Positions 3,485 through 33,111 of a DNA stretch of 33,225 nucleotides are shown piece by piece (within the stretch, counting starts at the first letter, position 1; the number at the start of each line of letters is the position of its first letter). The position numbers and the translations under genes were made by a program. Source of the DNA: Methanosarcinales archaeon (lineage in GTDB: Archaea > Halobacteriota > Syntropharchaeia > Alkanophagales > Methanospirareceae); assembly GCA_003661125.1 (NCBI GenBank), contig QMVO01000001.1, positions 1-33,225 of the forward strand, read 5' to 3'. Below the pieces are notes generated by a model. It saw only the letters and a program-made list of their open reading frames with translations, was not told the origin of the DNA and did no database searches.

Positions 3485-3862
3485 ATGGCGACTGATATCG
3501 AACTGAGTACAGGTCAGCACACAGTGAAGTGGTCAAAGACCGGTTATGATGATTTAATAGCGACGATAAATGTAACAGATACAGGCGTCTCCTGTGTTAG
3601 TGTTCAAAATGGTGCGTGTTATAGTAGCACACCGCCAGGCGTGCTTATCCCATCGTCGTTTACAGTAGTAGGATATTTAAAAGCAAGTGGAGCAGTTACC
3701 GACTTTGATAGCTGGGTAGCGAGCAAAGGCGGTAAGGATAGTATTGAATACGCAGATGTTCTAGAAATAGGAGACGCTTATTTAGGATTTGTGGATATAG
3801 GATTTACACCTAACTATACTAATGTCTTAACTGCGGGAGATTACTATCTTGGACTGGGTTAG
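3485..3862 (+). CDS. small protein that starts inside a PEGA-like module (lacks the first strand) followed by a Cys-containing beta module
   Basis: The N-terminus MATDIELSTGQHTVKWSKTGYDDLIATINVTDTGVSCVSVQNGACYSSTPPGVLIPSSFTVVGYLK aligns with the giant protein's penultimate module GRHYIKAVASGYETLEMIISVSDSGIRCEYALSQGAVCYGSTPSTPGAHGLYSRNFIVKMYLK. An in-frame taa at 3473-3475 rules out an upstream extension. Confidence 0.65.
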   Translation: MATDIELSTGQHTVKWSKTGYDDLIATINVTDTGVSCVSVQNGACYSSTPPGVLIPSSFTVVGYLKASGAVTDFDSWVASKGGKDSIEYADVLEIGDAYLGFVDIGFTPNYTNVLTAGDYYLGLG

Positions 3863-3919: not shown

Positions 3920-4999
3920 ATGACACTCACTGATGCTGGTCGTGAATACATAGCGAAGAACATAGGCGTAGGAGACTGTTGGGTTTATAGCGGCTTATCA
4001 TGGGTTGCAGAGAGCGTAACTGGCGATAGAGTTAATAGGACAGGTGGTACCGGAAAGGCAGTAAAAGATATTATTGACCCTACAACTGATCATATAGAAA
4101 TTAACGGGCTGAACATATCGAAAGCTACTTTAAGAGCTAACAATGGCGGAAATGATGTTACGATATCAGATGTAACTAACGAGATTTTAAAGAATGATGG
4201 TTATCCAGCAGGAGAAACCCAGTATTGTGTAGGTGCACCCGGACCGGGTCCAACGGGAGAGGGTGAGCTGTGTGTATTAACATCAGTAGACCTCGCTGAT
4301 GTATATATTGATGATGAGACAACTCCGAATCCTGACCTGTCGCCTTCGCGTAGTGAGCCACCGTATAAGTGTACAAAAGTAACAGCAACACCCGAAGGCA
4401 TACAGCACAAAGTTACAGTAAAGAAAACAGGCTATACGGCAGAACCAGTATATGTTATTTGCGTTGAAAACCAGAAAGCATATGTAACTATTTACTTGGA
4501 GCCTGAAGCTGGTACAGATGTAGGTACGCTAGAGTTGCGCGCATATAAAGAGGGTACAACAGAGGAGATACATGCAAACTTTGATATAGAAGGCTTAAGT
4601 GGAGAGGAGAAATTTCTCACTCCGCATACAATGAATGTCCCTGCAAAGACTTACGACTGGATACGGTTCTATTGCACCGGCTTTGAACCATACGAAGCTA
4701 CAAATGTGACCGTTGAAGAGGGTGAGACAACTACTGTAACTGCATACATGAAACCAAAAAGATTGTGGAAACAAGTGTATGTAGGACCACCAATCGCGCT
4801 TTTAGTAATTGATGACTTCGATATACCCAGTAGATTATATTGGGATAATCCATACGATTTTAGCGTAACTATAAGATGTTTTGAAGCAGGTTGGTATTAT
4901 GCTAATATAGAGCTAAGAGAGCCTGGGAACTTCATGGCAACTTACGACCCTGCAGACTTAGGACCAACGCGCTGGACGATACCTCTGCCTGAGAAATAA
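3920..4999 (+). CDS. PEGA-repeat structural-like protein (359 aa)
   Basis: GGAG Shine-Dalgarno motif upstream. At least two PEGA-like units: ...ADVYIDDETT...PEGIQHKVTVKKTGYTAEP, and ...EIHANFDIEG...VPAKTYDWIRFYCTGFEPYEATNVTV. Contains a GPGPGP linker. No signal peptide. Confidence 0.6.
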   Translation: MTLTDAGREYIAKNIGVGDCWVYSGLSWVAESVTGDRVNRTGGTGKAVKDIIDPTTDHIEINGLNISKATLRANNGGNDVTISDVTNEILKNDGYPAGETQYCVGAPGPGPTGEGELCVLTSVDLADVYIDDETTPNPDLSPSRSEPPYKCTKVTATPEGIQHKVTVKKTGYTAEPVYVICVENQKAYVTIYLEPEAGTDVGTLELRAYKEGTTEEIHANFDIEGLSGEEKFLTPHTMNVPAKTYDWIRFYCTGFEPYEATNVTVEEGETTTVTAYMKPKRLWKQVYVGPPIALLVIDDFDIPSRLYWDNPYDFSVTIRCFEAGWYYANIELREPGNFMATYDPADLGPTRWTIPLPEK

Positions 5000-5464: not shown

Positions 5465-5468
5465 CAAA

Positions 5469-5729: not shown

Positions 5730-5731
5730 AG

Positions 5732-7090: not shown

Positions 7091-7177
7091 CTACACACAC
7101 CACTAATAAGTTTATATTCATAGAATATAAATATTAAATTGGTATGGCGGTTGTGGATTTAAACATCTACACACACC
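7087..7177. repeat. 15-nt perfect direct repeat acatctacacacacc (7087-7101 and 7163-7177)
   Basis: Read directly. The first copy contains the start codon of the 5732-7090 gene. The second lies 76 nt away, between the arms of the 7140-7188 inverted repeat. Confidence 0.8.
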
Positions 7178-7188
7178 CCGCCATACCA
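7140..7188 (-). terminator. 11-bp inverted repeat (tggtatggcgg / ccgccatacca) downstream of the giant gene; possible terminator or recombination/homing site
   Basis: Arms at 7140-7150 and 7178-7188 are perfectly complementary, with a 27-nt loop. It sits 38 nt past the giant gene stop (7226) and is followed on the minus strand by AT/T-rich sequence. Confidence 0.3.
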
Positions 7189-7225
7189 TAATTTTATCGA
7201 GAACAAGCTATTTTTATGATTGCTT

Positions 7226-10200
7226 TTAGTCTATAACCGTTATTGTTGCATCTCCGGGTACTGACTCGAATCTAACAGTCTTTGTTACCGCCGCTTTCTT
7301 CAAATACATTTTCACTATGAAGTTACGCGAATATAACCCATGTGCACCGGGTGTTGAAGGTGTGCTACCATAACATACCGCCCCTTGCGATAATGCATAT
7401 TCACACCTGATACCCGAATCAGACACAGAAATAATCATCTCTAATGTTTCGTATCCACTGGCAACGGCTTTTATATAATGCCTGCCGAACGGTATGAGCC
7501 CGCCTGTTGCTATCTCCTTATATGTAGCGTTTGGTATATCATACGGTTTGTAATAGAACTTTGCGTTGATATTGTAGCCATCAGAGCCTGAATATGCTGA
7601 TAAATATATATATGTAGCTCTACATACTTTAGCAACTGTTGTTTCGTTTGCTTTTACATCCACATGGAACTTACATGGCGAGAAGCACTTGTCGAGTATA
7701 TTCACATAACAATAATCGTACTCTCCTTCCTTGCCCGCTATCTCTACCGTATGTGTACCTGCGGGCAATTTAGCCGTTACTGCATACCCACCGCCCTTAT
7801 CAGCCCCATCAATAAAGAAAGCAGCAACATTGCGAGGCGTAGTAAATGTAATAGTGTCGTATGTCGCTACCGTTAACTCTCCTTCTGGTGGTTTGGGTGT
7901 ACTTACCGTGATTTTCTGTGTTGTAGTCCCACAATTAGGCGGAGTTGCATCGTTACATGCTTCCAAGCGAATGCCCCACACGCCAACCTTATCAAAAGTT
8001 ATAGTTATTGTTTTACCAGTCTTCGTGGTTACAGCCCCGTCCGGGTCTGTAATTGTCCATGTCCACGACACGATTTTGTATGGCGCTTCAGTATGTGCCA
8101 TGCCTGTTAGTGTTACAGTCTCGCCTACACTAACAGTAGTAGGACCAATAATCTTTACATGATCTACACCCGGTGGCGCACCAGGACATGCGGGGAATGT
8201 GTCTCTACCAGTATCTGAACCAGCATAATATTCATAGATCATGTCAGCATCGTCACGCGTTACTTTACCGTCACCATTAACATCAGCTCGTTCCTTGAAT
8301 TCTGATTCTGATAAACCACCTACTTTATCTTTAATCGCATTCCAGCCGAGTTCTACATAATCCATAACGAGTTTTGCATCTTCGTCTGTGACATAATTAT
8401 TGGGGTCGTTGTTCACATTGCCATAGTTACTGCATGGTGATTCTCTGTATTCATACGCCCTTGATACAGTAACTGTCCTGTGCTCATCAATAGTTCCAGC
8501 ACAGATTTTGAGATGTATCTCGTAACTGCCTGCCTCAGTAAATGTGTGTGTAACTACCCGTCCAGTCTTCTTAACATCGTGCGGGAATGTCCATTCCCAA
8601 TCAGTTATTTCAGAATCAGCACAGCCTTTTGCATGCCCTTCAAAAGTTGTAGGAGTACCTACTCGTACGCTTTCACGCGCTCCTGAATAATAACTGAACC
8701 ATGCTCCCGTTGCTGGGCATACATACGCTTTAGGATTCCAGACGATAAGTTTTTCTTCTTTCGCTCTCTTCTCAGCATTTAAGAATTCTTTAGTATCTAC
8801 ATACTTGTTGCTATGGTAAAAGAAAACTTCACCTACACCGTTTCTTACTGCTTCTAAACATATATTTCTCGTTCCGTAGTAAATCGTTCCTAAGATTCTA
8901 TAATATTTGTCTAGCTGATCTAGTGGATCAACATATACTTTTACATCTGCACCGTCGATTGTACTAAACAGCCACATAGTAGCCTCGTCGTAAGCCCATT
9001 TAGTCACATCACGACAAGTTTCTGTGTTTGGAGCGTTCTCAACCTCTATCCTGCACGATACATAATGCCCCGCTATTGCGCCTTTATCTGGAGCGTTATA
9101 TCCAGTAAGTCGTATTGTAGCATATACAGGTATTCCCGGCTCCATATCAGGAGCTTTTTTAAGCCCTTCGAGAAACTTTTGGTATGTATCCCATCTCTTT
9201 TTTAACTCTTCTTGGGTCAAGCCAGTATGTATTGTATCACCGTCTATCACATCACATACATGTGTATAGAATTCACATTCATCTTCTTTCAGATGCGGTG
9301 GAACTTTATAAACTCGCGCAGCCAACATTTTGCGGCTTCTATCATGGAATTCTAAGCATGACATCGCAAATTTCCAGTATATCCCATAAAATGCTCTCCC
9401 AAACAGTGAGTTTACCCACGCTTTTGTGTCTTTTATCCACTCGGAATAAGCAAGCAGTTCCTGTTCTGCTGGTTGCCACTGCTCATCCTTTATGTAACCC
9501 TGAATCATAATTGGCCAGTTTTGAGGTAATTCTTCGATCAAAGCCCATGCGTGTGTCATCCCCCAACCAATATAAAGACCAATTGCCGATAATGCCAATG
9601 GACCAGCAATCCAAGGTTTTTTTAGATATGTCGCTGCATCTCTTATGAGTTCTTTTGCATACGATGAGAATTTTTGATCTACAAGCATAGCCGCTTTTGC
9701 ACGGCTAATACCAAAATCTTTGCTGACACAGTCAATAGCTTTATCTCGCACGCCGGGATAGAATCCAGATTTTTTGAAATCGTCTGCAAGCATATCCATC
9801 TCTGCAATGATTCTCGTTGGTCGTGTTCTTTCACTTCCAGCTCTTTTACCCCATTCATCAAACTGGTCGATAAGCGAACTTGCAAGTTGGTTCCATCCGC
9901 CTCTGAACGAACCTCTAGGTATTGGTGTATCTGTTTCGATACAAATCGAGCGCACTATGTTCATTAAGGCAGTATCTAAATCAAACCCTACATTGTTTCT
10001 TATTGCATCTAATTCTTCGTCTGTGATAGTTCTGAACCTATAAGCAAGTTTTGCCTCTGCTGGTCCTACTATCTCTCCCGTGTCCGTTACTTTACCGCCC
10101 AGCTTAGCAAAATAACGAGCAAATTCTTCGTCTGATAGCTTACGGACAGTTTTAAACATAACTTCAGGATTGTAGTATGAGAGGAATCGAATTGCTAATC

Positions 10201-13200
10201 TACCAGGATCAGATACCGCTTCTGCTCTTATAGCATTTCTTATCGTATTTATCATTAAGTTTTCTAGCGAATCATCCGTCTTCGTAAAGTGATACCACTG
10301 TATATGATTCTCTGCAACACGCGCTATTTCCTCTATCTCTTCACGGTTCGCACCTGTAGCGACGAAAATCTCATTCCATCTCTTCTCAGTGTAATGTTTA
10401 CTTAAATGTTCCTTCACATCATTGAAGAACTGTAAACGAACGCTTGGTTCTACATCTATTTCTGGAAGTTCGTTCAGTTCTGTTATTACACGATCCCAAT
10501 CTTTGGCACGCAAGGCTTGATTTATCCGTCTCAACCGTGTTTCGTCCGTGTGTGCTAACGCTTTCCAAAGTTGCGGAAATAGTGGATGTTTTGGACTGGT
10601 AATACCTTGCGCGTATAAGACTTTAGTAAGTTCAGGCAAATCAAGCTCTTCTTCTCCTCTGACAAGCTTGTTTAACGAATTAATAGCTGAGAACTTGCAA
10701 TGCCATGCCGATGGGCTACACAAAGCATCTGCGGCTTTTATGAACACCGTTATATTTTTTGCTCTATCACCATACCGCAATGTGTAGATATACGCAGGAT
10801 ATGCCTCGTCTAAGAGCTTAGCGTATTCGTCGGGGAATAAAGAAAGTTCCTCTAATGCTTCGCGATACGATTGATGTGAAAGAGACTCCTCGATCATATT
10901 CTCTAACCTTTCGAGATCGATATAAGCTAAAGTATCGTCTATCTCATCGGCATAGTCTGATACATCACGAGCACTGATCCTAATTATAGCAGCATCATCA
11001 AGCATTACCGATGCTTCTGCAAGTTCACCTTTTACTAAGTGCTTAATATACTTCTCTTTCTCCTCTGGCCGTGCTACTCTCCAGAAATGCCAGAACCTAT
11101 CTTCAGAGAACGCTTCAAAGACTGCTTTTCTAATGGCTTCTTTTGAATATGCAGCAGCTTCACTGAGGAGAAGACCCGTTTTTGAGAATTTGCCGAGTTT
11201 ATTAGCTTTATTAAATGCTGTCAATACCAATGCATAATCGTGCATAGCAGGTGTCATAGGTGTCCCATCAAGAGATTTACCGTGCTTTACAATCTCAAAA
11301 GATTCAAAAAAGTGATATTTAGGTTTTGCCCTACGCGCAAGCTTGAATGCACCATCCCAATTGTCATTTAACAATTTAGCCAATCTCTCTCCAGAACCGC
11401 GTACAAGGTCATCATCTCCTATATATGCAAGTAATTCACCAGCAGCTTCTCGCACATTGTCCCTAATATCCGCAACTACCTTCGCATAATCTGGGTGTGC
11501 AGGATCAATATTATCGATTTGCTTTTCAAGCTCGTCCAGCCACTGGTTAAACTTACTAATCGCTTCCGAATCTTTTATTGCAGGATTATTGAGAATGTCT
11601 TCTCCTAATCCTCTAGCTTTTTCTATGTCGCCATCAGCGATAGCCTTAATCCATAAATTCAATCTCGCCTCGTCACCATATACCAGTGTTCTATAAAATC
11701 TTTGTGGATCCTCTTCTATGAAATTCCTAACAGCAGCAACATCATCGCCATATTTACTGCCTTTCCTTATGACTTTACCCAGATACTTTGTTATATTGCC
11801 ACCCGGCACCATTGGCAGTAGCGAGCATACCACAACTATCGGAAACATAGCGAGGTCAAACGCATCGGGATGATACTCCGCACCATATATGTCCTTGCCC
11901 CTAAAAACACCTGAAATCACATTTGCACAATATACCGGGTCCAGCATATCTCCCCAGAACCGGCGGCATTCATCTGAATCTTTTGGTATGCCTACGAGCT
12001 CGCAAGCCTCACCAAAGACACCATAGCGAGAGTAGAGATATATTTCCTTCGTGCCCTCGAACTTACCACACCAAACAGGACCGGTAGGTAAATATCCTTT
12101 CGATACGCTAGGTCCTATGCCATATGTCTCGCCTTCTACCAGTCCATCGGCTTTAGTAAATACAGCCTTACCATCAGGATAGCTATCTGGTGATTTAAAG
12201 ATAGGCACGGCATCCGGTGTAGATAAAAAGCATCGTGCCCAGCCATACGCCTTTTTACAAAGAATTTGATCTCCTGTTTTAAATCCTCTAGTGTGTACAA
12301 TAAACTTATCCTCCTCTGTAATAAACCTGAGCGTGAACTCAAATTCATAAGTACCTTCGCCGTTCTCACCTTGGCGACGTGTTGTCACAGGCTTTGTCCA
12401 GTCCTCATGCATCTCTTCATTCAAATAGCCCGGCTTACCCGCTATGAATCCATATCTACAAGCAGCCCCGGGTAGTGATGGTAAGCCTATACTAAGAACA
12501 CCGTTATCGTCTGTCTTCAGGAGATTACCATAGCCGTTCCAGCTCTCGGTGGTGCATATACCTTGGTGCACCGTTATATCAGAGCACGGAACTTCCTGCC
12601 ATGTACCTTCAAAAATCTCTTTCGTGACACTTACATACGCGTGTTTTATACCATGACCTTTCTCGTCCTTTACGGTTATCCGTATTTCGTACGGTCTTCG
12701 TGTTTCTGTCTTGAAATCGAGCTCGTCATCTGATGGACAACCCTGTATTATCTGCCCGTCTTTGATATGGAAACTATAATCCTTGCCATATTCCATATCA
12801 ACATCGCAGCTTAAGAAGATTGTTTCGAGCTCGTCCTTGTTTAATGTTGTAGTACTGGTTTCGATACCGACTGTATTTCCAGAGCTACAGCCTGTACCTT
12901 TACGCAGCCACAGACAGCGACGGTACGATGGTAATCCACCCGTGTTCTTTACTATTAGCTTGAATAGTGGACGTTTACAATCCCCTAAATCTATTGTGCT
13001 GTTCTCTTTTAAGCCCCAGAAAGTTATACCGTTATCAATACTGTAAAAAGCCTCTACAATCTCTAACTTAGCTGGGGGTATCTTTTTTAATTTCAAGATT
13101 AGAGCCCATCCATAACAAGCGGTAAAAAGTTTACAACTCTCGCTGCCATAGGATTCGTAGCCTTCCTTTGATGCACATGCTGTGTATACTGTCCCTTTAT

Positions 13201-14269
13201 CAAGATTGCATAAATCACACTCACCATTTGCATCCGTCCCGTAGCCGCTACCGTCAGGCTTCTCGCATTGAATAGAGTAGGTGCCCATATCAATTGCTAC
13301 TGTGGCACCTTTTATGGGCTTACCCGAAGGTTCAATCACCTTAACGCGCTGTTTGCATGTGGTACTTCTAAGTTTCAGTGTTTTAAGGGATGTACAAGCA
13401 ACAAATTCTGTGCTGGAGTCTGAAATCACTTCATAACCTGAAGGTGCTGACGCTTCTGCTACACACCAAACTCCTTCTTCAATATCCTTTACTGTACATT
13501 CGCCATTAGAATCAGTTGTGCATCTACCAAGCTCTTTTGCAGTGCCTTTCTCTCTTACTATAACAACAGATTGGGAGACACGGGCACCCGTATCTTCCTC
13601 AATAACCCTAAAGGATTGGTTGCATGTAGACTTAGCCGATACTGTTATATACTCAGTTCTAGAACAGTCAGTATCATACAGACTAACCTGCCATGTGCCT
13701 GTAGTAGCATCATCAGGGATTGTATAAACCTTACCGCCAGTGCCGGACACAGTCCACGACTTGCCAGGTATCCCACTGGGATACGCACCGATATATAAAG
13801 TGCTATTTGGTGGTGCATTTTTGTAGCTTATCGCTACCGTATCGCCTTGGTAATATTCATCCTCGTCTGTCGAAACGGAGCAGGGCTTAGTTGTTTTTAC
13901 TTTCAAGTGTATAGTGCCAGCCGAATCATGATAATAGCATGTTCCACCTTCATACGAACCGCACTCTATCACCGCATCTTTGTCTGATGAGGGCATGCTG
14001 AAGGTACAATCAGGCATTTTCTCTTCCCATGCGCCTGCACTTATATACTTCTTTTTCCAGCAACGAATTTGTCCGCCCCACTTAATATAGTAGCAAGCCG
14101 TGCCTGCGGTGTTATTTGTGTTATTAACAAATGCTCTTGCGGTAAGTGTTGCCCCTGCTGGCGCTATGAGCGTATCGCCAGGATGGTATATCTTGTTATT
14201 GTACCATATATATGCACTATAAAATTCGTATGCTGGTCCTAGTGTTCGCCCTTTCGGTTTCCTCGCCAT
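7226..14269 (-). CDS. giant (2347 aa) multidomain virion/adhesin-like protein with an embedded staphylococcal-nuclease (SNase)-like domain
   Basis: A single uninterrupted ORF. All aa positions are approximate. N-terminus: Ig-like and Cna-B/transthyretin-like repeats (TTDSNGECTVKDIEEGVWCVAEASAPSGYEV; TDANGECDLCNLDKGTVYTACASKEGYES). About aa 400-520: CARDB-like module. About aa 840-1650: helical region, with hydrophobic helices FDLAMFPIVVVCSLLPMVPGG (just before it) and WIAGPLALSAIGLYIGWGMTHAWALI (inside it). About aa 1665-1825: SNase-like (VIDGDTIHTG...IRLTGYNAPDKG...DKYYRILGTIYY...EAVRNGVGEV). Then two PKD-like units, two dockerin/EF-hand loops (NNDPNNYVTDEDAKLVMDYV; DVNGDGKVTRDDADMIYEYY), PEGA units, and a truncated PEGA end VRFESVPGDATITVID*. 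No signal peptide. Confidence 0.8.
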   Translation of the reverse strand: MARKPKGRTLGPAYEFYSAYIWYNNKIYHPGDTLIAPAGATLTARAFVNNTNNTAGTACYYIKWGGQIRCWKKKYISAGAWEEKMPDCTFSMPSSDKDAVIECGSYEGGTCYYHDSAGTIHLKVKTTKPCSVSTDEDEYYQGDTVAISYKNAPPNSTLYIGAYPSGIPGKSWTVSGTGGKVYTIPDDATTGTWQVSLYDTDCSRTEYITVSAKSTCNQSFRVIEEDTGARVSQSVVIVREKGTAKELGRCTTDSNGECTVKDIEEGVWCVAEASAPSGYEVISDSSTEFVACTSLKTLKLRSTTCKQRVKVIEPSGKPIKGATVAIDMGTYSIQCEKPDGSGYGTDANGECDLCNLDKGTVYTACASKEGYESYGSESCKLFTACYGWALILKLKKIPPAKLEIVEAFYSIDNGITFWGLKENSTIDLGDCKRPLFKLIVKNTGGLPSYRRCLWLRKGTGCSSGNTVGIETSTTTLNKDELETIFLSCDVDMEYGKDYSFHIKDGQIIQGCPSDDELDFKTETRRPYEIRITVKDEKGHGIKHAYVSVTKEIFEGTWQEVPCSDITVHQGICTTESWNGYGNLLKTDDNGVLSIGLPSLPGAACRYGFIAGKPGYLNEEMHEDWTKPVTTRRQGENGEGTYEFEFTLRFITEEDKFIVHTRGFKTGDQILCKKAYGWARCFLSTPDAVPIFKSPDSYPDGKAVFTKADGLVEGETYGIGPSVSKGYLPTGPVWCGKFEGTKEIYLYSRYGVFGEACELVGIPKDSDECRRFWGDMLDPVYCANVISGVFRGKDIYGAEYHPDAFDLAMFPIVVVCSLLPMVPGGNITKYLGKVIRKGSKYGDDVAAVRNFIEEDPQRFYRTLVYGDEARLNLWIKAIADGDIEKARGLGEDILNNPAIKDSEAISKFNQWLDELEKQIDNIDPAHPDYAKVVADIRDNVREAAGELLAYIGDDDLVRGSGERLAKLLNDNWDGAFKLARRAKPKYHFFESFEIVKHGKSLDGTPMTPAMHDYALVLTAFNKANKLGKFSKTGLLLSEAAAYSKEAIRKAVFEAFSEDRFWHFWRVARPEEKEKYIKHLVKGELAEASVMLDDAAIIRISARDVSDYADEIDDTLAYIDLERLENMIEESLSHQSYREALEELSLFPDEYAKLLDEAYPAYIYTLRYGDRAKNITVFIKAADALCSPSAWHCKFSAINSLNKLVRGEEELDLPELTKVLYAQGITSPKHPLFPQLWKALAHTDETRLRRINQALRAKDWDRVITELNELPEIDVEPSVRLQFFNDVKEHLSKHYTEKRWNEIFVATGANREEIEEIARVAENHIQWYHFTKTDDSLENLMINTIRNAIRAEAVSDPGRLAIRFLSYYNPEVMFKTVRKLSDEEFARYFAKLGGKVTDTGEIVGPAEAKLAYRFRTITDEELDAIRNNVGFDLDTALMNIVRSICIETDTPIPRGSFRGGWNQLASSLIDQFDEWGKRAGSERTRPTRIIAEMDMLADDFKKSGFYPGVRDKAIDCVSKDFGISRAKAAMLVDQKFSSYAKELIRDAATYLKKPWIAGPLALSAIGLYIGWGMTHAWALIEELPQNWPIMIQGYIKDEQWQPAEQELLAYSEWIKDTKAWVNSLFGRAFYGIYWKFAMSCLEFHDRSRKMLAARVYKVPPHLKEDECEFYTHVCDVIDGDTIHTGLTQEELKKRWDTYQKFLEGLKKAPDMEPGIPVYATIRLTGYNAPDKGAIAGHYVSCRIEVENAPNTETCRDVTKWAYDEATMWLFSTIDGADVKVYVDPLDQLDKYYRILGTIYYGTRNICLEAVRNGVGEVFFYHSNKYVDTKEFLNAEKRAKEEKLIVWNPKAYVCPATGAWFSYYSGARESVRVGTPTTFEGHAKGCADSEITDWEWTFPHDVKKTGRVVTHTFTEAGSYEIHLKICAGTIDEHRTVTVSRAYEYRESPCSNYGNVNNDPNNYVTDEDAKLVMDYVELGWNAIKDKVGGLSESEFKERADVNGDGKVTRDDADMIYEYYAGSDTGRDTFPACPGAPPGVDHVKIIGPTTVSVGETVTLTGMAHTEAPYKIVSWTWTITDPDGAVTTKTGKTITITFDKVGVWGIRLEACNDATPPNCGTTTQKITVSTPKPPEGELTVATYDTITFTTPRNVAAFFIDGADKGGGYAVTAKLPAGTHTVEIAGKEGEYDYCYVNILDKCFSPCKFHVDVKANETTVAKVCRATYIYLSAYSGSDGYNINAKFYYKPYDIPNATYKEIATGGLIPFGRHYIKAVASGYETLEMIISVSDSGIRCEYALSQGAVCYGSTPSTPGAHGLYSRNFIVKMYLKKAAVTKTVRFESVPGDATITVID

Positions 14270-25868: not shown

Positions 25869-26540
25869 TTACGGTTGCTCTTCCGAGAAGATGGGAGGGA
25901 GAGGTTCAACATCCTGCCATACACATAGGTGAGACAAGCCAGTTTCGGGTACGGGCGCTTCGGGCGTTGGTACAGGAATAGACCACTCAACTGAAGCTGA
26001 TAGCGCGTATTTATTCGCTCTCACTGTAGACTTTGAGATAGCATTATCAATACCGACGCCAGACTTTGCTCCACCGCGCGTACCCTCTATCAAGTACGCG
26101 TGCTGTAACGAAAATGGTACTACTTGCATGGATACTGCAACATCCATCTCGCCTTCGCTATTCGCTGCTATACCGGAGACAACTGCGTGGCATGTATCGT
26201 TAGTAAGCCTATTACCAACGCCGATGTTCTCGATATATGCACTTCCCGCGATGATGCCCTCGCCTGCGCGCGATGATAAGTTAGTAGCGAGTGTTAGCCC
26301 TGCCGAATCTACAATAGCTGATTTGGCATAGCTAAACTGAGATGCTTTCGTTATTGATAACGATGAATCGTATAACACCGATATCGAAGCATTACACAAT
26401 TGAAGGGAATCTGAAGATGTTGCATCTGATTCGCCCTCGCCCATCATCGTGACACTATAAACTAACTGCGCTGATGCACTGCCTACGAAAGCTACTACTA
26501 AAAAAAGCGCTATGGCTATCGCATATAGCTTCTTATGCAT
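25869..26540 (-). CDS. secreted protein of unknown function with a Sec-type signal peptide
   Basis: MHKKLYAIAIALFLVVAFVGSASA/Q gives a classic n-h-c signal with an A-S-A site. The rest is Ser/Ala/Gly/Val-rich and beta-like. It overlaps the upstream membrane-protein gene by 8 nt. Confidence 0.6.
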   Translation of the reverse strand: MHKKLYAIAIALFLVVAFVGSASAQLVYSVTMMGEGESDATSSDSLQLCNASISVLYDSSLSITKASQFSYAKSAIVDSAGLTLATNLSSRAGEGIIAGSAYIENIGVGNRLTNDTCHAVVSGIAANSEGEMDVAVSMQVVPFSLQHAYLIEGTRGGAKSGVGIDNAISKSTVRANKYALSASVEWSIPVPTPEAPVPETGLSHLCVWQDVEPLPPIFSEEQP

Positions 26541-26796
26541 TCTGGAACCACCTCATCACCGCCTTTAGCGCATTCTCCACAATAACAACTATACCAGCGT
26601 ATGCAGCGAACTGCGTTGCTACTGCTTCTTCTGTTATCACAGCTCCTTTGACATATAAGACCACACCAACGAGTGCCCCAACCAAGACTGTAGTCGCAAA
26701 CTTCGTAACATCGAATTCTTCATCTTTCGCTGATTTTAAATACCCGGACATTGCAAACACTATTGCCGCAACCACAGAAAATATTATCGCTTCCAT
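26533..26796 (-). CDS. small membrane protein (87 aa, 2-3 TM helices), holin-like
   Basis: TM candidates AIIFSVVAAIVFAMSGYL, FATTVLVGALVGVVLYV and FAAYAGIVVIV, with a polar/charged C-terminus. AGGTG Shine-Dalgarno motif 7 nt upstream. Confidence 0.55.
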   Translation of the reverse strand: MEAIIFSVVAAIVFAMSGYLKSAKDEEFDVTKFATTVLVGALVGVVLYVKGAVITEEAVATQFAAYAGIVVIVENALKAVMRWFQNA

Positions 26797-26852: not shown

Positions 26853-29144
26853 TCAGGTCGTGCCCTTCTTTACGCCATCTATATAGACATCTACGCCTCT
26901 AAGTTCATTGCCTTGCTCGTCCTTCGTGACGAAAGTCACTTCCACTGTTGGTGAAACATTATAGAAGTCGAACTCATCATCAGAAGGACAAGTGGGCATT
27001 AGCCGCCCATCTCTGACATGGATACTATAATTCTGGTTTGACTCTATACTTGTAATATCGAATGTTATATCCTCTATATCTTGGTAATCCAATACCCTAT
27101 CGCTTTTTACTCCGGCAATAGTCCCTACCGCTGCACATCCATATTCTTTCTTCACCCATACAAAACGTTTTTTAGAAATACCACCATCATTTCTTATACG
27201 CACTTTAAATTTAAGCTCTAATCCTACTGGGATATAAGCTGTGCCACCGCGAGTGATTTCTGTCCATCTACTGCCACCATCTAGGCTGTAATACGCGTTA
27301 GTTATCTTCAATTCTGGGTTTTTAGCTTTTATGGTTACTGATAGCGTTCTCTCGTCTGTGCTCTTTCCCGTGGATGTTGGCGCTATATAGAACACTAATG
27401 AATAAGTATTAGGTATAGCATTTGAAGGAACAGCAAATGATAGCGGAGAAAATGTCTTCGTTTCATTTGGCTTTATTTCAGATATGCTGTACGTCTTGTA
27501 ACGTGACTGCGGGTCTGTATTTATTTTCACAAAAAGATTTCCTGTATCTGCCTTATCACCAACATTCTTAATTGTTACGCTCAACTGTATAGTATCCCCA
27601 GGGTGTATATCACCACCCGTTATTACAGCCGCGTTTGTAAACCTAAAGTCGGGCTTTTTAGCTACTAGCGTCTTCGTTACGGTAGTGGCAGTATTAGGCA
27701 CTGTATAATCGAATTCCACAGTGCGATAGCCTTCCTTAACTAACTTCACATGCACTGTCTTACCGGGCTCAAGCTCAATAGTAAGTGATGGCATTGTTTC
27801 TCCTTTTAGGTCTCCATCTATATAAAGCTTTACCTCGCGTAACTCACTACCATCTTCAGCTTTCGTAACAAAAGTGATTGATACTTTACTGGGACTGAAA
27901 CATTCAGGGCATTTTGCATTTATCGAGTTCTTTTCCCATGCAGCCCAAAGGAAATCTACTTCGCGTATAGTTATCTTTTTTTCGTGATAGTCGTTCCATG
28001 CAATACCCATATCAGTTATATCAATTTTACCATTACTGTCCTTATCATAGGACAGTAATAACTCACAACCGTTTGCAAACGAAGGAGTTGGCGCGCTACA
28101 GGTCAGTTCAGGCAATGTCTCACCTTCAATAATCAATGAAGGAATCAAATCGCTATGCGTATTGTTATTAGCATCCGTAAACGATACAAACGTTAGCTTA
28201 CCATCGCTATTTTCTATTGTTTCTACATCATGGAACATCTGTGGATAACCCGACAAGTGGACTTCTATGTTGTACTCCTCGGCACCTCGTTTTATCTCAT
28301 TGCCTTTGCCCGGCGAAATTGACCACGAAGTTACCTGCGCAGTCGCATCAGAACACGCACGTGTTTTTATGGCCGTTATCTTCAGATACCCTGTCCCTCT
28401 TATCGTTAGCTTGCCTTTGAACACGCCTGAGATACTTGGATATGGGCTGCTCGATTCGCCGGTATCAAAAACTGCTTTGCTACTACCAGTCACCGGAAGC
28501 GCATTCAGCGCTTCGGTTACTATTTCTTCTGGAAGCTCGTTCCATGTGTAATAAGTAGCCCAGTCTGTAAAATATATGCAATCTACATTGTCAGGCGGAT
28601 TGCTACACCCATCTGCTAATAATATTGCTATTAGAACTTTCTTGTGTTTGTATAGCTTCGAAGACCACCATCCGATATAAGAAGCTGTAGGCGGCTTGCA
28701 CCATTTATCTTGATTGCCACTACTATCGCCATATTCTTCTGGTATAACTGCCTCATTTATTGTACCTCCCTCACCTAACTTAGCCATTAAGTTGTCATAA
28801 AATTCCTGTTTCGTTATCTTCGGTATTTCAGCAACAGTAAAAGTATCTGTTACCGAATCCGTCACAGGAGTATCAAAAGGATTTACTTCAACTAACACTG
28901 TATGACTACCGTGGATATCTGAACTTACATGGATATTATATGCGCTTGAACGCTCGCCGGGAGCAAGTGCGGTTGATTGATATTGACGATAGAGGTTACC
29001 ATCTAAATACAGTTTTACCCAATATCGCGAGCTCGTGTCACCATTGTTCTCAACATAAAATGAAGCTTTTACATAGTCATCCGGTTCGATTGTGTGTAAG
29101 TCTAATAAGCTTTCTCCGGCGAGGATTATCTTCATGCTTTTCAT
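26853..29144 (-). CDS. adhesin/virion-surface-like protein (763 aa): CARDB-like domains, dockerin/EF-hand loop, PEGA-like domain, truncated PEGA-like C-terminal tag
   Basis: N-terminal CARDB pattern (DLHTIEPDDYVKASFYVENNGDTSSRYWVKLYLDGN...). EF-hand loop SYDKDSNGKIDITDM. Full internal PEGA-like unit VSITFVTKAEDGSELREVKLYIDGDLKGETMPSLTIELEPGKTVHVKLVKEGY. Further CARDB-like units (VTIKNVGDKAD; VRIRNDGGIS). A module shared with the giant protein (TCPSDDEFDF). Ends ...VEVTFVTKDEQGNELRGVDVYIDGVKKGTT*. No signal peptide. Confidence 0.75.
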   Translation of the reverse strand: MKSMKIILAGESLLDLHTIEPDDYVKASFYVENNGDTSSRYWVKLYLDGNLYRQYQSTALAPGERSSAYNIHVSSDIHGSHTVLVEVNPFDTPVTDSVTDTFTVAEIPKITKQEFYDNLMAKLGEGGTINEAVIPEEYGDSSGNQDKWCKPPTASYIGWWSSKLYKHKKVLIAILLADGCSNPPDNVDCIYFTDWATYYTWNELPEEIVTEALNALPVTGSSKAVFDTGESSSPYPSISGVFKGKLTIRGTGYLKITAIKTRACSDATAQVTSWSISPGKGNEIKRGAEEYNIEVHLSGYPQMFHDVETIENSDGKLTFVSFTDANNNTHSDLIPSLIIEGETLPELTCSAPTPSFANGCELLLSYDKDSNGKIDITDMGIAWNDYHEKKITIREVDFLWAAWEKNSINAKCPECFSPSKVSITFVTKAEDGSELREVKLYIDGDLKGETMPSLTIELEPGKTVHVKLVKEGYRTVEFDYTVPNTATTVTKTLVAKKPDFRFTNAAVITGGDIHPGDTIQLSVTIKNVGDKADTGNLFVKINTDPQSRYKTYSISEIKPNETKTFSPLSFAVPSNAIPNTYSLVFYIAPTSTGKSTDERTLSVTIKAKNPELKITNAYYSLDGGSRWTEITRGGTAYIPVGLELKFKVRIRNDGGISKKRFVWVKKEYGCAAVGTIAGVKSDRVLDYQDIEDITFDITSIESNQNYSIHVRDGRLMPTCPSDDEFDFYNVSPTVEVTFVTKDEQGNELRGVDVYIDGVKKGTT

Positions 29145-29461
29145 CCTGTTTCTCCTATTAGTTCACCGTTAATATAAACGCTAACATCTGCTAGTTCTAC
29201 ACCTGATTCGTCATGGACGATGAAAGTAATTGGTACATTTTGCGGTGTGCCACCACCTCCCCCTTCTTTAGCGAGGACAAGCTCGATAACAACGCAAAAC
29301 TGACAACATCCATGCGAACCCACAGGGGCATAGCCGCACGATACAACTTTCCAGCCATCTGGTGGGCTATAGCTAACACAGGATTCGCCACATGCATACC
29401 CGTGTATTTTCGTTGGGTTGCCGTTCTCATCGCGTTCCAAAACTGTTTCATCATTGAGCAT
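29141..29461 (-). CDS. small Cys-rich protein (106 aa) ending in a poly-Gly linker and a truncated PEGA-like tag
   Basis: ORF track. ATGA overlap with the downstream 763-aa gene. The C-terminus is GGGGGTPQNVPITFIVHDESGVELADVSVYINGELIGETG*. Confidence 0.6.
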   Translation of the reverse strand: MLNDETVLERDENGNPTKIHGYACGESCVSYSPPDGWKVVSCGYAPVGSHGCCQFCVVIELVLAKEGGGGGTPQNVPITFIVHDESGVELADVSVYINGELIGETG

Positions 29462-29468
29462 AGAAGCA

Positions 29469-30440
29469 TCATGTTGTTCCTTTTAGTGCACCATCCACAC
29501 GAATTTCAACGCCTGATATTTCTGTACCATTATTGTCTTTTGCGATAAAAGTCACCTTTTTCTTGCCTTTATAACATCCCGGACAGAGTTTGTTAATTGA
29601 TTTGCGATAGTATGCCTCACCAACATAATCAAATTCAGGTTCGGCTATTTTGCCATTGACCCAATCCTTATGGCAAGCATCTAGCTCGTTAACATCTATT
29701 ACCCCATCATTATTCTTGTCATAGTAAAGGATTAGCTCACAGCCTGTTTCAAGCAATAAGCTCCCATAAGGGTTGTTATCACACAGAATCTCACCAGGAC
29801 ATTTTGCATTTATACTACCATATCGCGGATCAGAGCTAGGATACGCAAATAAAGAACTTATAAAGTGGAACTCTTCCTCTGTTAGTTTACCTTGGTGAAA
29901 CATTTCATCTGCTTTAGCAAGATCTGAAGACGTTAGATATCCATCATTGTCTGTATCGAAGTATTCAAGCATCGCATAGCCTGACTCAAAGTGTGGTGTT
30001 GGTGCATAACACCCTAAAGGTCTCTCTAACCAGTAGGCTTTCCCTACTTCTAAAGTATTTGTGTAAATAAACCTGCCTTCATCATAGTTATACCCCTGTA
30101 CATGCCATTCCAACCCTGTACCTTCCACGTTTATAGGTTCTGTACCGGGTCCAACCAGCGCCCACTCGCCATGCTTTAATGATCTATAAATTGTTAGCAA
30201 GTCATCAAATGTTACTGTACAATCCGTTCCGCTTATTGTTATCTCTCTAGTTCCCCACGGAACATATACATAATAGCCTTTTGAACATTCTAGGTTCGTC
30301 GCGTGAACCCACTTACCTTCCTTATACTCCCATACCTCTACATCTGGACCGAAAACGCTGGCGGGGTCGGATGGCGAAGGTATCACCGGTATTGATATAT
30401 AATTCTCGAGGGTTCTGAGGTTGATCGTATATTCTGACAT
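29469..30440 (-). CDS. surface/virion-like protein (323 aa) with two EF-hand/dockerin-like loops and a truncated PEGA-like tag
   Basis: YFDTDNDGYLTSSDLAKADEMF and YYDKNNDGVIDVNELDACHKDW. The module SINKLCPGCY is shared with the 763-aa protein. Ends KKVTFIAKDNNGTEISGVEIRVDGALKGTT*. No signal peptide. Confidence 0.7.
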   Translation of the reverse strand: MSEYTINLRTLENYISIPVIPSPSDPASVFGPDVEVWEYKEGKWVHATNLECSKGYYVYVPWGTREITISGTDCTVTFDDLLTIYRSLKHGEWALVGPGTEPINVEGTGLEWHVQGYNYDEGRFIYTNTLEVGKAYWLERPLGCYAPTPHFESGYAMLEYFDTDNDGYLTSSDLAKADEMFHQGKLTEEEFHFISSLFAYPSSDPRYGSINAKCPGEILCDNNPYGSLLLETGCELILYYDKNNDGVIDVNELDACHKDWVNGKIAEPEFDYVGEAYYRKSINKLCPGCYKGKKKVTFIAKDNNGTEISGVEIRVDGALKGTT

Positions 30441-30865: not shown

Positions 30866-30985
30866 CAACTACCCACCGTTAAAACGGTAGGCTTGCGGGT
30901 GAATCATCATGCACCGCACTCATCCCCGCCTCAGGCTGGTTGACAACAACCCTGTGAGTTGGAGCCCGCTCCCAACTCACTCAGG
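30866..30985 (-). ncRNA. candidate omega-RNA (reRNA) scaffold overlapping the tnpB 3' end and right end
   Basis: In characterised TnpB systems the guide RNA derives from the 3' end of tnpB plus the right end. Stem-loops here are at 30954-30979 (gtgagttgg..ccaactcac) and 30871-30890. The extent and guide cannot be set without RNA data or a covariance model. Confidence 0.35.
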
Positions 30986-32025
30986 TTCATAGAGGCAACA
31001 AGGTCCGCATTATCTTGGAAACCGCAGTTGATACACCGGAACAGCGCCTGCGTCCTCCTGTTCCTCTTGTCTATCACACCACATCTTGGACAATGCTGCG
31101 ATGTATACGCGGGATCCACTCGGATAACGGGTATACCTCTTTCAGAGCATTTGTATTCTATCATTGTGCTGAGCTTTCTGAACGCCCAGCTATGGAAGTT
31201 CGCTCTGTCATTCTTCCGTCTCTTGACGCGGTCTCTTATGCCCGTGAGATCCTCCAGCACCACTACATCGCCTTCCTTGAGGCTGTCAACGAATTCTCTG
31301 CTTATCTGGTGCAAGACGGTATTTGCCCATCGATTCTCCTTACCACTAAGCCGTTTAAGCTTCCTCTTCGCAGAGGAAGTGCCTATTTTCTGGAGTGTTT
31401 GCCTCTGTTTCCTATAATGTTCCCTCTTCGCTTTTATATCACCCCCTTTTCGTTTAAATCCGTTGGAAGCGACAAGAATATTTCGTTCGCCGATGTCCAC
31501 ACCCACATAATTGCTCCCTTCAGGATCAGGAAGCTCGTATCTGACGGTGATATGGACATAGATGTCATCATCTCTGAAAGTAATCTTGGCATCTCTTACG
31601 GGATTATTCAGGAGCTGTCGCTGATAATCGCCTATGTCAAGTGCGAGTTTCACGCGTCCATGAAGGGTAGCAATAGAGATTCTGAAATCGCCATTGTTCC
31701 TGAGCAGAGTAAAGAGTTTCTTATCCAGATCCATACTAAGCTGTCTAAACTTGTGTTGCCTGTGCCGGTTCTGTTTATACGATTTCGCTACGCGGTCACG
31801 CGCCCGGACTGCGAGATTCGCAGGGAGTTTGTAGCGCTCTCTTACCGTTCTGTAAGTGAAATGGTGCAATGCGACGGAGTTGAAACACCTCTTGGTAAAA
31901 GCAACCTCGCTGATATAGTTACAGGCATCTCTGAAAGCTATTGCAGTCTCCCTTATCTTCTCCGCTTCCTCTTCCATCTCGCGCAGCTTACATACTACCG
32001 TCTTTATCGCTTCCATCATGTTCAT
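30931..32025 (-). CDS. tnpB: TnpB (OrfB) RNA-guided RuvC-like nuclease
   Basis: RuvC-I YVGVDIGERN, RuvC-II VVVLEDLTG, zinc finger CPRCG...CINCG, RuvC-III QDNADLVASMNL. The catalytic D/E/D all appear intact. 364 aa is typical for TnpB. Confidence 0.85.
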   Translation of the reverse strand: MNMMEAIKTVVCKLREMEEEAEKIRETAIAFRDACNYISEVAFTKRCFNSVALHHFTYRTVRERYKLPANLAVRARDRVAKSYKQNRHRQHKFRQLSMDLDKKLFTLLRNNGDFRISIATLHGRVKLALDIGDYQRQLLNNPVRDAKITFRDDDIYVHITVRYELPDPEGSNYVGVDIGERNILVASNGFKRKGGDIKAKREHYRKQRQTLQKIGTSSAKRKLKRLSGKENRWANTVLHQISREFVDSLKEGDVVVLEDLTGIRDRVKRRKNDRANFHSWAFRKLSTMIEYKCSERGIPVIRVDPAYTSQHCPRCGVIDKRNRRTQALFRCINCGFQDNADLVASMNLSELGAGSNSQGCCQPA

Positions 32026-32373: not shown

Positions 32374-33111
32374 ATGAATGAGATAGTTGTCCCTGTAAAA
32401 GTGAAGATATGTTCGCCTGATGATAACACTATCGCAAATTGTAAAAAAGCGTGGGAGTGGCTGCACACAATCTTCATACCAATAGATAAGCTGAAATACC
32501 AGCCTGAATATATCGTTAAGAAATCGAATTTTTTCACATGGTATAACGACGAGAAGAACACAGAAGAATGGGATTATTTCAAAGAGTTGGATGAGTTGCC
32601 GCGTACAGGCGCGCTTCGCTTACTTATATTAGATTGTTTTTCAACTGGCTATCGTACACCGTGGGGGCTTGCAGGAGGATGTTTCGGTATTGGAAATAAC
32701 TGGTATGAGCCTTCAGTATTTGTCGGTTGTTTTCAAGACTCGTTTGCTGTACATAACAACTGCGGTGTGCTAAAACTATCGAAAGCTTTGCAACACGAAC
32801 TGCATCATACACTCGAAAGCTGTGCAGAGAAAAGTGCAGACTATATCGTTTCGCATTCTGTCGATGAATACACAAACAACAAGGCTAAGGCGATAGCGGG
32901 TGCTGACTATGCTGAAGCGCATAGACCACTGTGGGAGAATACATGCCCGTATGGCTATTCTGATAACAACTATTGCGTGTTCGATTGTTGGTCGTGGCGT
33001 GAATGCACTATTTTAAAAGAGCTTGCTATGATGTTCCTCAAGGAAATTGGTGTCTATATCGTGACATTTTCAAGTGAACCGGAAGGTGCAACGATCGAAC
33101 TAATAGAATGA
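32374..33111 (+). CDS. putative zinc metallopeptidase (HExxH) with a truncated PEGA-like C-terminal tag
   Basis: LSKALQHELHHTLES contains HExxH in a helix-like context. The C-terminus is VYIVTFSSEPEGATIELIE*. I prefer the ATG at 32374 (MNEIVVPVKV...). The 89-codon upstream extension in the track is Ser/Phe-rich and antisense to 32142-32336. Confidence 0.5.
   Translation: MNEIVVPVKVKICSPDDNTIANCKKAWEWLHTIFIPIDKLKYQPEYIVKKSNFFTWYNDEKNTEEWDYFKELDELPRTGALRLLILDCFSTGYRTPWGLAGGCFGIGNNWYEPSVFVGCFQDSFAVHNNCGVLKLSKALQHELHHTLESCAEKSADYIVSHSVDEYTNNKAKAIAGADYAEAHRPLWENTCPYGYSDNNYCVFDCWSWRECTILKELAMMFLKEIGVYIVTFSSEPEGATIELIE

Follow-up and report, generated by a model that had tools for sequence, protein, structure and literature searches.

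Strand complementation between protein subunits is known so far from secreted bacterial and archaeal pili. In type V pili, a pilin lends two donor strands from its C-terminus, which take the place of N-terminal strands in the following pilin; the tip and adaptor pilins carry no donor strands, and a cysteine protease primes the strand exchange (PMC13655056). In archaeal threads and bundling pili, an incomplete immunoglobulin (Ig)-like sandwich is completed by a single N-terminal strand of the neighbouring subunit (PMC9715654; PMC12337348). Here, we analysed a 33,225-nucleotide (nt) stretch of DNA from a Methanosarcinales archaeon (contig QMVO01000001.1 of assembly GCA_003661125.1; this whole stretch is referred to as the window) and found a set of genes that end inside a PEGA domain, together with another gene that begins at the point where they end. 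The tails of these genes are very probably a conserved functional fragment of a split PEGA domain, and we lean towards the view that the split domain would let proteins of a virus-like element of anaerobic methanotrophic (ANME-1) archaea dock to each other head to tail, by non-covalent contact. Compared with known strand-exchange systems, the vacancy to be filled would be encoded by the start position of a gene, instead of being made by a protease or held by a chaperone.

Half-PEGA tails and their conserved stops

Three consecutive genes on the minus strand (genes 1, 2 and 3; coordinates in Table 1) terminate within the first strands of a PEGA-like fold. A first-pass annotation, made from the letters of the window, had claimed as much and had pointed to a full-length internal copy of the domain in the product of gene 3, a protein of 763 amino acids (aa); the open reading frames (ORFs), the termini and the internal copy bear both claims out. 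The three products end in ...VDGALKGTT, ...INGELIGETG and ...IDGVKKGTT, each directly followed by TGA (3/3), with 7 nt between the stop of gene 1 and the start of gene 2 and an ATGA overlap between genes 2 and 3. We call their tails type A; the tail of gene 1 matches our own hidden Markov model of the PEGA first half with 53-59 bits and with 0 residues left before the stop. The internal copy of gene 3, which begins VSITF and reads VSITFVTKAEDGSELREVKLYIDGDLKGET/MPSLTIELEPGKTVHVKLVKEGYRTVEF... with the junction KGET/MPSLTIELEPGKTVHVKLVKEGY (the slash marks the junction), matches Pfam PEGA (PF08308) by itself, at 21.8 bits against a cut-off of 20.8 and over profile positions 13-68. When all frames on the 3' side of the stops of genes 1-3 were read, the missing half-domain was encoded in none of them.

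Further upstream in these proteins, gene 1 carries EF-hand/dockerin-like modules at residues 157-255 (Pfam EF-hand_1, E = 4.2e-9) and gene 3 matches Pfam CARDB (E = 4.5e-11). An EF-hand-like unit of the pattern ...GCEL(I/L)L.YDK..(N/S)G.ID...IN(K/A)(L/K)CP.C(Y/F)... lies directly before the start of PEGA in gene 1 and in the internal module of gene 3, so that the upstream parts of the three proteins are not wholly unrelated; the unrelatedness asserted at first pass has to be given up for this unit. Judged by eye, no N-terminal hydrophobic signal is present in the products of genes 1-3 or in that of 3485-3862 (gp3485, described below). The type A tails contain no hydrophobic stretch and are amphipathic beta sequences ending KGTT or GETG; taken alone, they match neither Pfam (PEGA, dockerin, EF-hand) nor NCBIfam.

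The first-pass count of three tagged genes is right for these three and falls short as a limit, since two further window proteins, a giant protein of 2347 aa and the product of the ORF ending at 33111, also stop inside PEGA, cut 6-7 residues earlier (type B). Their C-termini read ...VRFESVPGDATITVID and ...VTFSSEPEGATIELIE, respectively. Type A tails end after the loop ...(V/I)DG..KG(T/E)T, type B tails after ...ITV(I/L)D, the type B sequence being the classical PEGA motif; as nothing downstream continues the domain in any frame, no tail forms a complete seven-stranded PEGA sandwich within one polypeptide. The start that we consider likely for the ORF ending at 33111 has a counterpart in the related contig L005 (L and P numbers denote related contigs and collected proteins), where the homologue starts MDEIVIPV. 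As a separate observation, a CARDB-like domain ending ...CPSDDE(L/F)DF is common to the giant protein (residues ~395-520) and gene 3 (residues ~615-733), and is followed by a complete CarboxypepD_reg-like domain in the former and by the truncated tail in the latter.

Table 1. Features of the window that are discussed in the text (positions count from the first letter of the window; tail sequences are followed directly by the stop codon).
Feature	Position	Strand	Description
Gene 1	29469..30440	-	323 aa; beta-rich N-terminal part, two EF-hand/dockerin-like modules, type A half-PEGA tail (putative donor)
Gene 1, type A tail	29472..29561	-	KKVTFIAKDNNGTEISGVEIRVDGALKGTT, then TGA
Gene 2	29141..29461	-	106 aa; Cys-rich N-terminal part, Gly-rich linker EGGGGGTPQN, type A tail
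Gene 2, type A tail	29144..29236	-	VPITFIVHDESGVELADVSVYINGELIGETG
Gene 3	26853..29144	-	763 aa; CARDB-like domains, EF-hand-like module, intact internal PEGA, more CARDB-like domains, type A tail
Gene 3, type A tail	26856..26945	-	VEVTFVTKDEQGNELRGVDVYIDGVKKGTT
Gene 3, intact internal PEGA	27654..27884	-	residues 421-497; junction KGET/MPSL at 450/451
gp3485	3485..3862	+	125 aa; putative acceptor
Giant protein	7226..14269	-	2347 aa; PKD, SNase, dockerin, CarboxypepD_reg-like domains, type B tail
Giant protein, type B tail	7229..7282	-	KTVRFESVPGDATITVID
ORF ending at 33111	32374..33111	+	likely start MNEIVVPV at 32374; longest ORF from 32107; type B tail
ORF ending at 33111, type B tail	33055..33108	+	YIVTFSSEPEGATIELIE
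359-aa protein	3920..4999	+	PEGA/CarboxypepD_reg-like domains; Pfam matches weak
87-aa protein	26533..26796	-	very hydrophobic, helical; directly downstream of gene 3; conserved in L005 and L007

The position of the stop is conserved among relatives. Orthologues of gene 1 from independent assemblies (P0001-P0003) end KGMT, KGTT and KGTA; the 90%-identity cluster of gene 2 comprises 36 members of 105-106 aa, and all those read (9/9) end in ...IGET plus G, E or R; the relatives of gene 3 (L005-L007, P0023, P0028, P0038) end ...VKKGTT; and the orthologues of the giant protein (n = 9) all end ...ATITV(I/L)D, with TAA, TGA or TAG as the stop codon. Orthologues of all three genes in related genomes, a comparison that had been suggested at first pass, therefore stop at the same residue, which speaks against an assembly error; since the orthologues come from independent assemblies and no downstream frame continues the domain, a sequencing error or a frameshift is ruled out as well. 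In the gene 3 tail, 8 synonymous and 2 non-synonymous codon changes separate the window from L005, and over all pairs of giant tails we counted 315 synonymous versus 126 non-synonymous differences. The tail is under purifying selection, and it is the stop position that is conserved while the stop codon varies among TAA, TGA and TAG.

Is the tail confined to these few genes? To answer this question, we built a 34-position profile from eight type A tails and searched 1.84 billion representative proteins (E <= 0.001). The search returned 115 matches, 31 of them single-stretch, the others being long proteins with many generic repeats. In 30 of the 31 single-stretch matches, the C-terminus of the protein lies at most 1 residue from the end of the match; the lone exception (P0097) has an unsplit internal copy, and its own C-terminus is a type B tail. 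The carriers are 105-656 aa long and differ in their N-terminal parts (PEGA, CARDB, EF-hand/dockerin, LVIVD beta-propeller, glycoside-hydrolase-like of the GH42 type, or unannotated), and the tail forms the extreme C-terminus in ~30 distinct protein clusters with unrelated N-terminal domains. Thus, the tail is a portable C-terminal module. Across 45 loci, the stop follows within two residues for 23 of the 28 type A and 13 of the 14 type B first-half matches; the remaining ones are unsplit internal copies or weak partial matches. One carrier, P0035 (656 aa), combines a membrane anchor or signal at its N-terminus with a GH42-like domain, followed by two tandem first halves (C-terminus ...VIFDARDENDEEVRGVKLYIDGELKGDT-LELTKIVTFEAR-TVTFDARDKSDTEVKGVKLYIDGELRGET).

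A candidate acceptor that begins at the break

The product of 3485-3862, gp3485, had been named at first pass as a candidate acceptor, and this proposal gains support from the finding that it starts where the type A tails stop. The protein begins MATDIELSTGQHTVKWSKTGYDDLIATINVTD; its residues 1-34 represent the PEGA second half, residues 35-66 extra strands and residues 67-125 a three-helix domain. Residues 5-33 match positions 29-58 of the 71 in the Pfam PEGA profile (E = 3.8e-5, 23.9 bits, above the family cut-off), and a PEGA match is found in 15 of the 16 members of the family. The gene has its own ATG, an AT-rich upstream region and an in-frame stop 3 codons before the Met. The same beginning at the break recurs in 15 of 16 database homologues, the exception being P0022, and in the relatives of gp3485 in 30 metagenome loci, some 45 relatives in all. 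In the metagenome loci, either an in-frame stop precedes the second half by 3-10 codons or the match runs from the first Met, and no first half is encoded before it. Within the 45 loci, 32 second-half matches begin at most 10 residues after an upstream in-frame stop. A 46-residue profile of the 'MPSL' N-terminal half, searched against an index of 5.8 billion proteins, returned one 34-aa fragment only, the index being coarse for such a short motif.

When a tail and gp3485 are concatenated, a single ungapped PEGA alignment runs across the junction, from positions 2/12 to 57/58 of the profile, and scores 37.0 bits with the tail of gene 3, 31.1 with that of gene 1, 29.6 with that of the ORF ending at 33111 and 26.1 with that of the giant protein, as against the 23.9 bits of gp3485 alone and no match for any of these tails by itself. 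A PEGA gathering score over most of the 71 positions is reached only by the reconstituted or the unsplit unit. The ends of the type A tails abut the start of gp3485 exactly: the unsplit sequence ...IDGDLKGET/MPSLTIELEPGKTVHVKLVKEGY compares with the split pair ...IDGVKKGTT (stop) and MATDIELSTGQHTVKWSKTGY. The second acceptor suggested at first pass, the product of 15779-16114, did not survive, since it contains a complete CarboxypepD_reg-like domain (profile positions 2-64 of 82) and is therefore no acceptor. A dockerin-like nature of the C-terminal helices of gp3485 was also considered and is not claimed, as Pfam gave no support for it.

Within gene 3, the codon of Met-451 (27792-27794) is preceded, at a spacing of 5 nt, by the Shine-Dalgarno-like motif AAGGAG; on the minus strand, 27792-27815 reads CTAAAAGGAGAAACA-ATG, i.e. 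the codons for ...LKGET before the internal Met. Internal initiation at this Met could yield a 313-aa protein 'MPSL...KKGTT' with both halves, which would be a second acceptor in the window.

In related contigs, the two halves are found in adjacent genes and in both split and unsplit form. In L041, a 122-aa donor-only protein (...YIDGEYKGIT) is followed after 12 nt by P0094, which runs from MPSLNVQLEPGK... to ...VDGDKKGIT, and P0094 is followed after 56 nt by a gp3485-like acceptor starting MSLEAELSLGTHSVRF.... In L039, 6 nt separate P0067 (...INQELKGET) from P0085, which starts MPSLNVDLEPGK... and ends ...VKKGTT, and in L042 P0075 starts 6 nt after the end of a tail. In L043, a contig of Candidatus Syntropharchaeia, a 235-aa protein (...YIDEKLKGET) lies 4 nt before P0081 (MSLKVDLEPGK...); the former aligns with residues 221-450 of gene 3 (55% identity, E = 1e-84) and the latter from residue 453 onwards, so that the intact PEGA of gene 3 is split there exactly at the tail boundary. 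L043 also has a gp3485-like gene. In the giant-like protein of this contig, a first half and a second half stand in succession near the C-terminus, and the helical domain that closes the protein is homologous to the C-domain of gp3485 (E = 1e-5). What the window and at least nine relatives encode in two separate, convergent genes, those of the giant protein and gp3485, is found unsplit in L043. In the giant protein itself, the penultimate domain is homologous over the full length to a first half joined to the beta domain of gp3485 (...GRHYIKAVASGYETLEMIISVSDSGIRCEY...GSTPSTPG...FIVKMYLKK); the gp3485 fold can therefore hold the first-half strands within a single chain. Among the collected proteins, 47 carry the C-terminal tag only, 16 an N-terminal second half only and 5 both; the both-half proteins of the relatives include P0075, P0081, P0085 and P0094.

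Three further arrangements were observed in these contigs. At the four adjacent donor-acceptor junctions (L039 5530-5550, L041 500-520, L042 45-62, L043 835-850), the stop is TAG in 4/4, the distance from TAG to ATG is 4-12 nt, and TAG often lies within a TAGGA/AGGA motif; such junctions could reflect read-through, or the stop codon could at the same time serve as a ribosome-binding site. L038 contains two adjacent paralogous genes with the common EF-hand-like N-terminus MAVTLEW(I/V)RDNYD..., of which the one at 8595-8867 ends in a first half (...IHIPTGATLEVDGVEVI) and the one at 8883-10004 has a second half only, internally, followed by a gp3485-type helical domain. In a related clade, a protein of ~250 aa (L034 9097-9843, L037 1545-2285, L031 1686-2438, L035 154-909) has a PEGA first half, MKKKVTFSSVPEQASIYIDGTP..., at its N-terminus and continues into an unrelated Cys-rich part; its gene comes directly after that of a propeller protein with a type A tail (...LYVDGALIGEI) and two genes before that of a long acceptor protein.

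Structure prediction with AlphaFold2 (AF2) gave for gp3485 alone, from a 16-sequence alignment, a predicted local distance difference test score (pLDDT) of 92, with five strands in a beta domain at residues 10-64, three helices, and coil for residues 1-9. PEGA profile positions 1-28 are absent from gp3485, yet the five-strand domain is predicted confidently for the protein alone. The AF2 model of P0094 (8-sequence alignment, mean pLDDT 67) has the layout second half, full PEGA, first half; its terminal halves are the best-predicted segments (pLDDT 71-83) and form strands, while the linker stays below 50. The model is compatible with a pairing of the halves. A Foldseek search of the PDB gave no match at E < 0.4 for the gp3485 model and nothing at E < 0.2 for the gp3485 and P0094 models together, and a profile search of PDB sequences gave no match.

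Proposed docking, its alternatives and the element setting

We propose that the tails (16-31 residues) are the N-terminal fragment, i.e. strands 1-2 and the following loop, of a transthyretin-like PEGA sandwich that is split at the gene level, and that the missing C-terminal fragment would be supplied by another polypeptide beginning at the break, gp3485 in the window and gp3485-like or 'MPSL...' proteins in the relatives. The tail would insert into the incomplete sandwich of the acceptor, rebuild a whole PEGA and join the two proteins non-covalently, by donor-strand or fragment complementation between a C-terminal donor and an N-terminal acceptor, head to tail. The tail-only proteins (genes 1-3, the giant protein and the ORF ending at 33111) would be terminal cargo, contributing CARDB, PKD, EF-hand/dockerin-like and beta-propeller or nuclease domains. 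The both-half proteins of the relatives could form chains, capped by donor-only and acceptor-only proteins, and gp3485 would serve as an adaptor or terminator whose three-helix domain binds a further partner. We infer a physical complementation of the halves from the conserved stops, the selection on the tail, the complementary boundaries, the adjacency of the genes and the existence of both split and unsplit orthologues; the same observations support the first-pass suggestion of a shared C-terminal tag that donates strands to a common acceptor. Tentatively, the tail may further be a portable, self-sufficient docking tag that needs no chaperone, protease or covalent bond and allows fibres or adhesins to be assembled in the cytoplasm, at some loci in gene order; the donor-only proteins would form the tips and proteins of the gp3485 type the adaptors, and the split sandwich would amount to a general code of assembly. 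The assembly might be a host-recognition fibre, or an appendage of the virion or particle, of a virus-like element of ANME-1/Syntropharchaeia; we favour an appendage for host recognition because the cargo is adhesin-like, signal peptides are not evident, and a hydrophobic 87-aa protein and a papain-like protease are encoded nearby.

Several points weigh against the docking of split halves. The confident prediction of gp3485 alone suggests that its extra strands could make the beta domain self-sufficient; internal copies of the second half with its extension are found in P0006, P0022 and L038 with no accompanying first half; and five donors face one recognisable acceptor in the window. Type B tails break off 6-7 residues earlier than those of type A, which makes their junction with gp3485 inexact. 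The 250-aa protein of L031-L037 that starts with a first half is not explained by the model. The support comes from comparative genomics, the P0094 model is mediocre, Foldseek gave no significant match, and the searches of virus collections gave no match that would speak for a viral nature or a role in a virion. The first three of these points, together with the two tandem first halves of P0035 and the first half at the N-terminus of the L031-L037 protein, would fit a tail that is a self-contained C-terminal module, with hairpins that pair mutually or with another virion or host surface, and a gp3485 beta domain that is an autonomous PEGA look-alike. We regard this explanation as unlikely, since it accounts neither for acceptors that begin where donors end, nor for gene pairs 4-56 nt apart in the predicted order, nor for fused orthologues with one intact PEGA at the junction. 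In the transthyretin-like fold, moreover, the first two strands lie in opposite sheets, and an isolated first half is therefore unlikely to fold alone.

Alternatively, the tail could be a recognition signal for a machine of packaging, export or processing, in which case the papain-like protease encoded at 24876-25865 could recognise, cleave or ligate it by transpeptidation. A Peptidase_C1 gene (E = 2.5e-9) lies near tagged genes in the window, L005 and L007, the tagged proteins have no obvious signal peptide by eye despite their extracellular-type domains, and type V pili depend on a cysteine protease for their strand exchange (PMC13655056). However, the tail has no similarity to curated sorting signals (NCBIfam) and no hydrophobic segment, the protease is absent from other donor-acceptor contigs (L039, 16.5 kb), and the complementary N-terminal halves would have no explanation, which makes a recognition signal rather improbable.

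A third possibility is that the halves are joined on the ribosome, by stop-codon read-through or termination-reinitiation, into a covalent PEGA, the split then being a regulatory device. The TAG codons of the four adjacent junctions would suit this, as would the downstream ATG that is in frame and 2-4 codons off in L039, L041 and L042, and two ORFs of L005 that are in frame as well. Four in-frame junctions of five, however, have a chance probability of ~0.05 and could reflect an origin by nonsense mutation; the L043 junction is out of frame, and 3.3 kb separate the giant gene from gp3485, which is read from the other strand. Genes 1-3 of the window end in TGA and have no second half downstream in any frame; with these stops and the unrelated downstream sequence, read-through is inapplicable to them, and we consider it very unlikely as a general explanation.

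It is just as hard to maintain that the tails are neutral debris, i.e. decayed domains or recombination scars between PEGA repeats. PEGA-coding repeats are indeed frequent in these genes, and L005 shows, relative to the window, a deletion between the tail of gene 1 and the internal PEGA of gene 3; debris, however, would be expected to decay at variable points, whereas we found an excess of synonymous changes and a fixed stop in 36 relatives of gene 2, nine giant orthologues and ~30 unrelated clusters, with the stop codon itself varying. Finally, a DNA-inversion switch that joins truncated genes to 3' cassettes such as 3485-3862 (compare the G segment of phage Mu, invertible tail-fibre cassettes and the shufflon) has a negligible probability: although gp3485, on the plus strand from 3485, converges with the giant gene, which ends at 7226 on the minus strand, and the two would come to lie head to tail if 3485-7225 were flipped, such a joining is not supported: the junctions lack inverted repeats (the best pair, 14 nt at 86%, lies outside both ORFs), the orientation is the same in at least nine related contigs, Pfam scans gave no recombinase or invertase, gp3485 has an ATG of its own, and three consecutive genes have no cassette partner.

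What is the setting in which the proposed docking would take place? Relatives are found on contigs labelled Methanophagales and Candidatus Syntropharchaeia, and species-representative genomes gave only two matches. Searches of a phage/virus collection (megablast, tblastn) and of IMG/VR gave no nucleotide or protein match to the element, one PHROGs family of unknown function was matched, no capsid hallmark was identified, and terminal repeats are absent from the contig. The 87-aa protein, encoded immediately after gene 3, has no Pfam, PHROG or NCBIfam match and, by eye only, looks similar to small, hydrophobic capsid proteins of archaeal spindle-shaped viruses. It is followed on the same strand by a 223-aa protein (25869-26540) with a clear N-terminal signal or anchor and no family match, and by the papain-family protease, which has a C-terminal beta-rich extension, lies on the minus strand two genes downstream of the tagged genes and is conserved in L005 and L007.

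On the other side of the window, the family of the 359-aa protein is encoded directly downstream of the acceptor gene in L001-L003, L016, L025, L027, L038 and L043, and the protein may belong to the same assembly as the acceptor. Next to it, 5132-5464 (plus strand) encodes a small protein with a (GP)5 run, VESGPGPGPGPGPSPS, which is conserved in L016; in relatives it is followed by a paralogous protein of ~85 aa, always downstream of the acceptor gene and the gene of 360-410 aa. Between the gp3485 module and the giant gene, 5732-7090 (minus strand) encodes a protein of 452 aa, in which five or six helix-turn-helix repeats (HTH_23, E = 1e-13) stand in tandem and the C-terminal part resembles a nuclease; relatives have a TnpB gene or nothing at this place. 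The window itself contains a TnpB/Cas12f-like OrfB_IS605 gene at 30931-32025 (minus strand; TNB domain, E = 5.8e-24) and a LAGLIDADG homing-endonuclease-like ORF at 1556-2641 (plus strand; E = 5e-11), and genes of both types recur at variable positions in L001, L002, L003 and L039. Between 6000 and 23000, GC and AT skew are strongly negative throughout (GC skew -0.11 to -0.31), matching the block of minus-strand genes, and the sign of the skew changes near 6 kb and near 23 kb.

If the split PEGA does act in docking, it would show how uncultivated viruses or mobile elements of ANME-1/Syntropharchaeia build and swap their host-interaction modules. About 30 added codons would make any protein attachable to a common adaptor, which would explain the mosaic and fast-changing set of CARDB, PKD, propeller and dockerin-like proteins. 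Strand complementation would then extend to cytoplasmically made viral proteins and to another fold; donor-strand complementation would have arisen independently in a third form, and for the first time in viruses. The tail and its acceptor would also be a natural counterpart of engineered split-domain tags, and a naturally optimised, possibly thermostable pair of short peptide and acceptor with a potential use as a protein-assembly tag. For annotation, we suggest that neither pseudogenes nor assembly errors be read into PEGA or CarboxypepD_reg ends that look 'truncated' in such genomes.

Comparison with known systems

In limited literature searches, which included a paper on the ANME-1 virome (PMC9894754), we found no description of a split PEGA domain or of strand complementation in archaeal viruses, consistent with the first-pass statement that no archaeal sorting or assembly signal of this kind has been described. 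Two known classes of C-terminal elements were compared with the tail and rejected. The archaeal C-terminal sorting signals (PGF-CTERM, PEF-CTERM) do not apply, as the tail has no hydrophobic helix and NCBIfam and Pfam gave no match. The tail is no dockerin either: EF-hand/dockerin-like modules stand upstream of it, and the tail itself has no dockerin or EF-hand match. The cohesin-dockerin system is nevertheless comparable in that a short module on many cargo proteins docks to a common partner, and EF-hand/dockerin-like modules occur in the very same proteins; it differs in that cohesin and dockerin are two complete, independent domains, whereas here fragments of one domain would pair, and the tail has no calcium-binding loops.

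Split domains are familiar as engineered tags, such as split GFP (strands 10-11) and the SpyTag/SpyCatcher pair derived from split CnaB2, in which the SpyTag bond is a covalent isopeptide, and natural gene fissions usually concern a single enzyme. With these, the proposed docking would have in common that a short and a larger fragment reassemble, and fused and split orthologues coexist here. In contrast to SpyTag, no isopeptide residues are evident in the window proteins, and in contrast to natural gene fission, the tag is reused on ~30 protein families.

Chaperone-usher pili and the archaeal threads and bundling pili resemble the proposed assembly in that a sandwich is completed by the neighbour and non-covalent head-to-tail chains result. 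Their subunits, however, are secreted (by Sec or Tat), polymerise outside the cell and donate a single N-terminal strand, whereas the window tails would donate 2-3 strands, about one-third of the domain, from the C-terminus of proteins without signal peptides. Pfam scans of the window proteins gave no usher or chaperone homologue, and no pilin homology was found in Pfam, in NCBIfam, in the profile search of PDB sequences or by Foldseek against the PDB (E < 0.2).

The type V pilus is the nearest analogue of the proposed mechanism. In both, a C-terminal two-strand donor would fill a vacancy on the N-terminal side of the next subunit's beta-sandwich, here as read from sequence: a terminal donor complementary to the vacancy is seen in the type A boundaries and in the colinear genes of L039 and L041-L043. 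Polarity, which stems in type V pili from donorless tip and adaptor subunits, would be provided here by donor-only, acceptor-only and, in the relatives, donor-plus-acceptor proteins. No homology to type V pilins was detected at the sequence level, and the differences are several. The acceptor gene of the window starts at the break, so that no cleavage would be needed; the fold is PEGA/transthyretin-like and not that of a pilin; the window system has no lipoprotein or signal sequences and resides on an archaeal mobile element; and its tag is portable across unrelated proteins. The principle, strand or fragment complementation, is thus known, and what would be new here is the PEGA fold, a vacancy set by the start of a gene, a portable tag and the setting of a mobile element.

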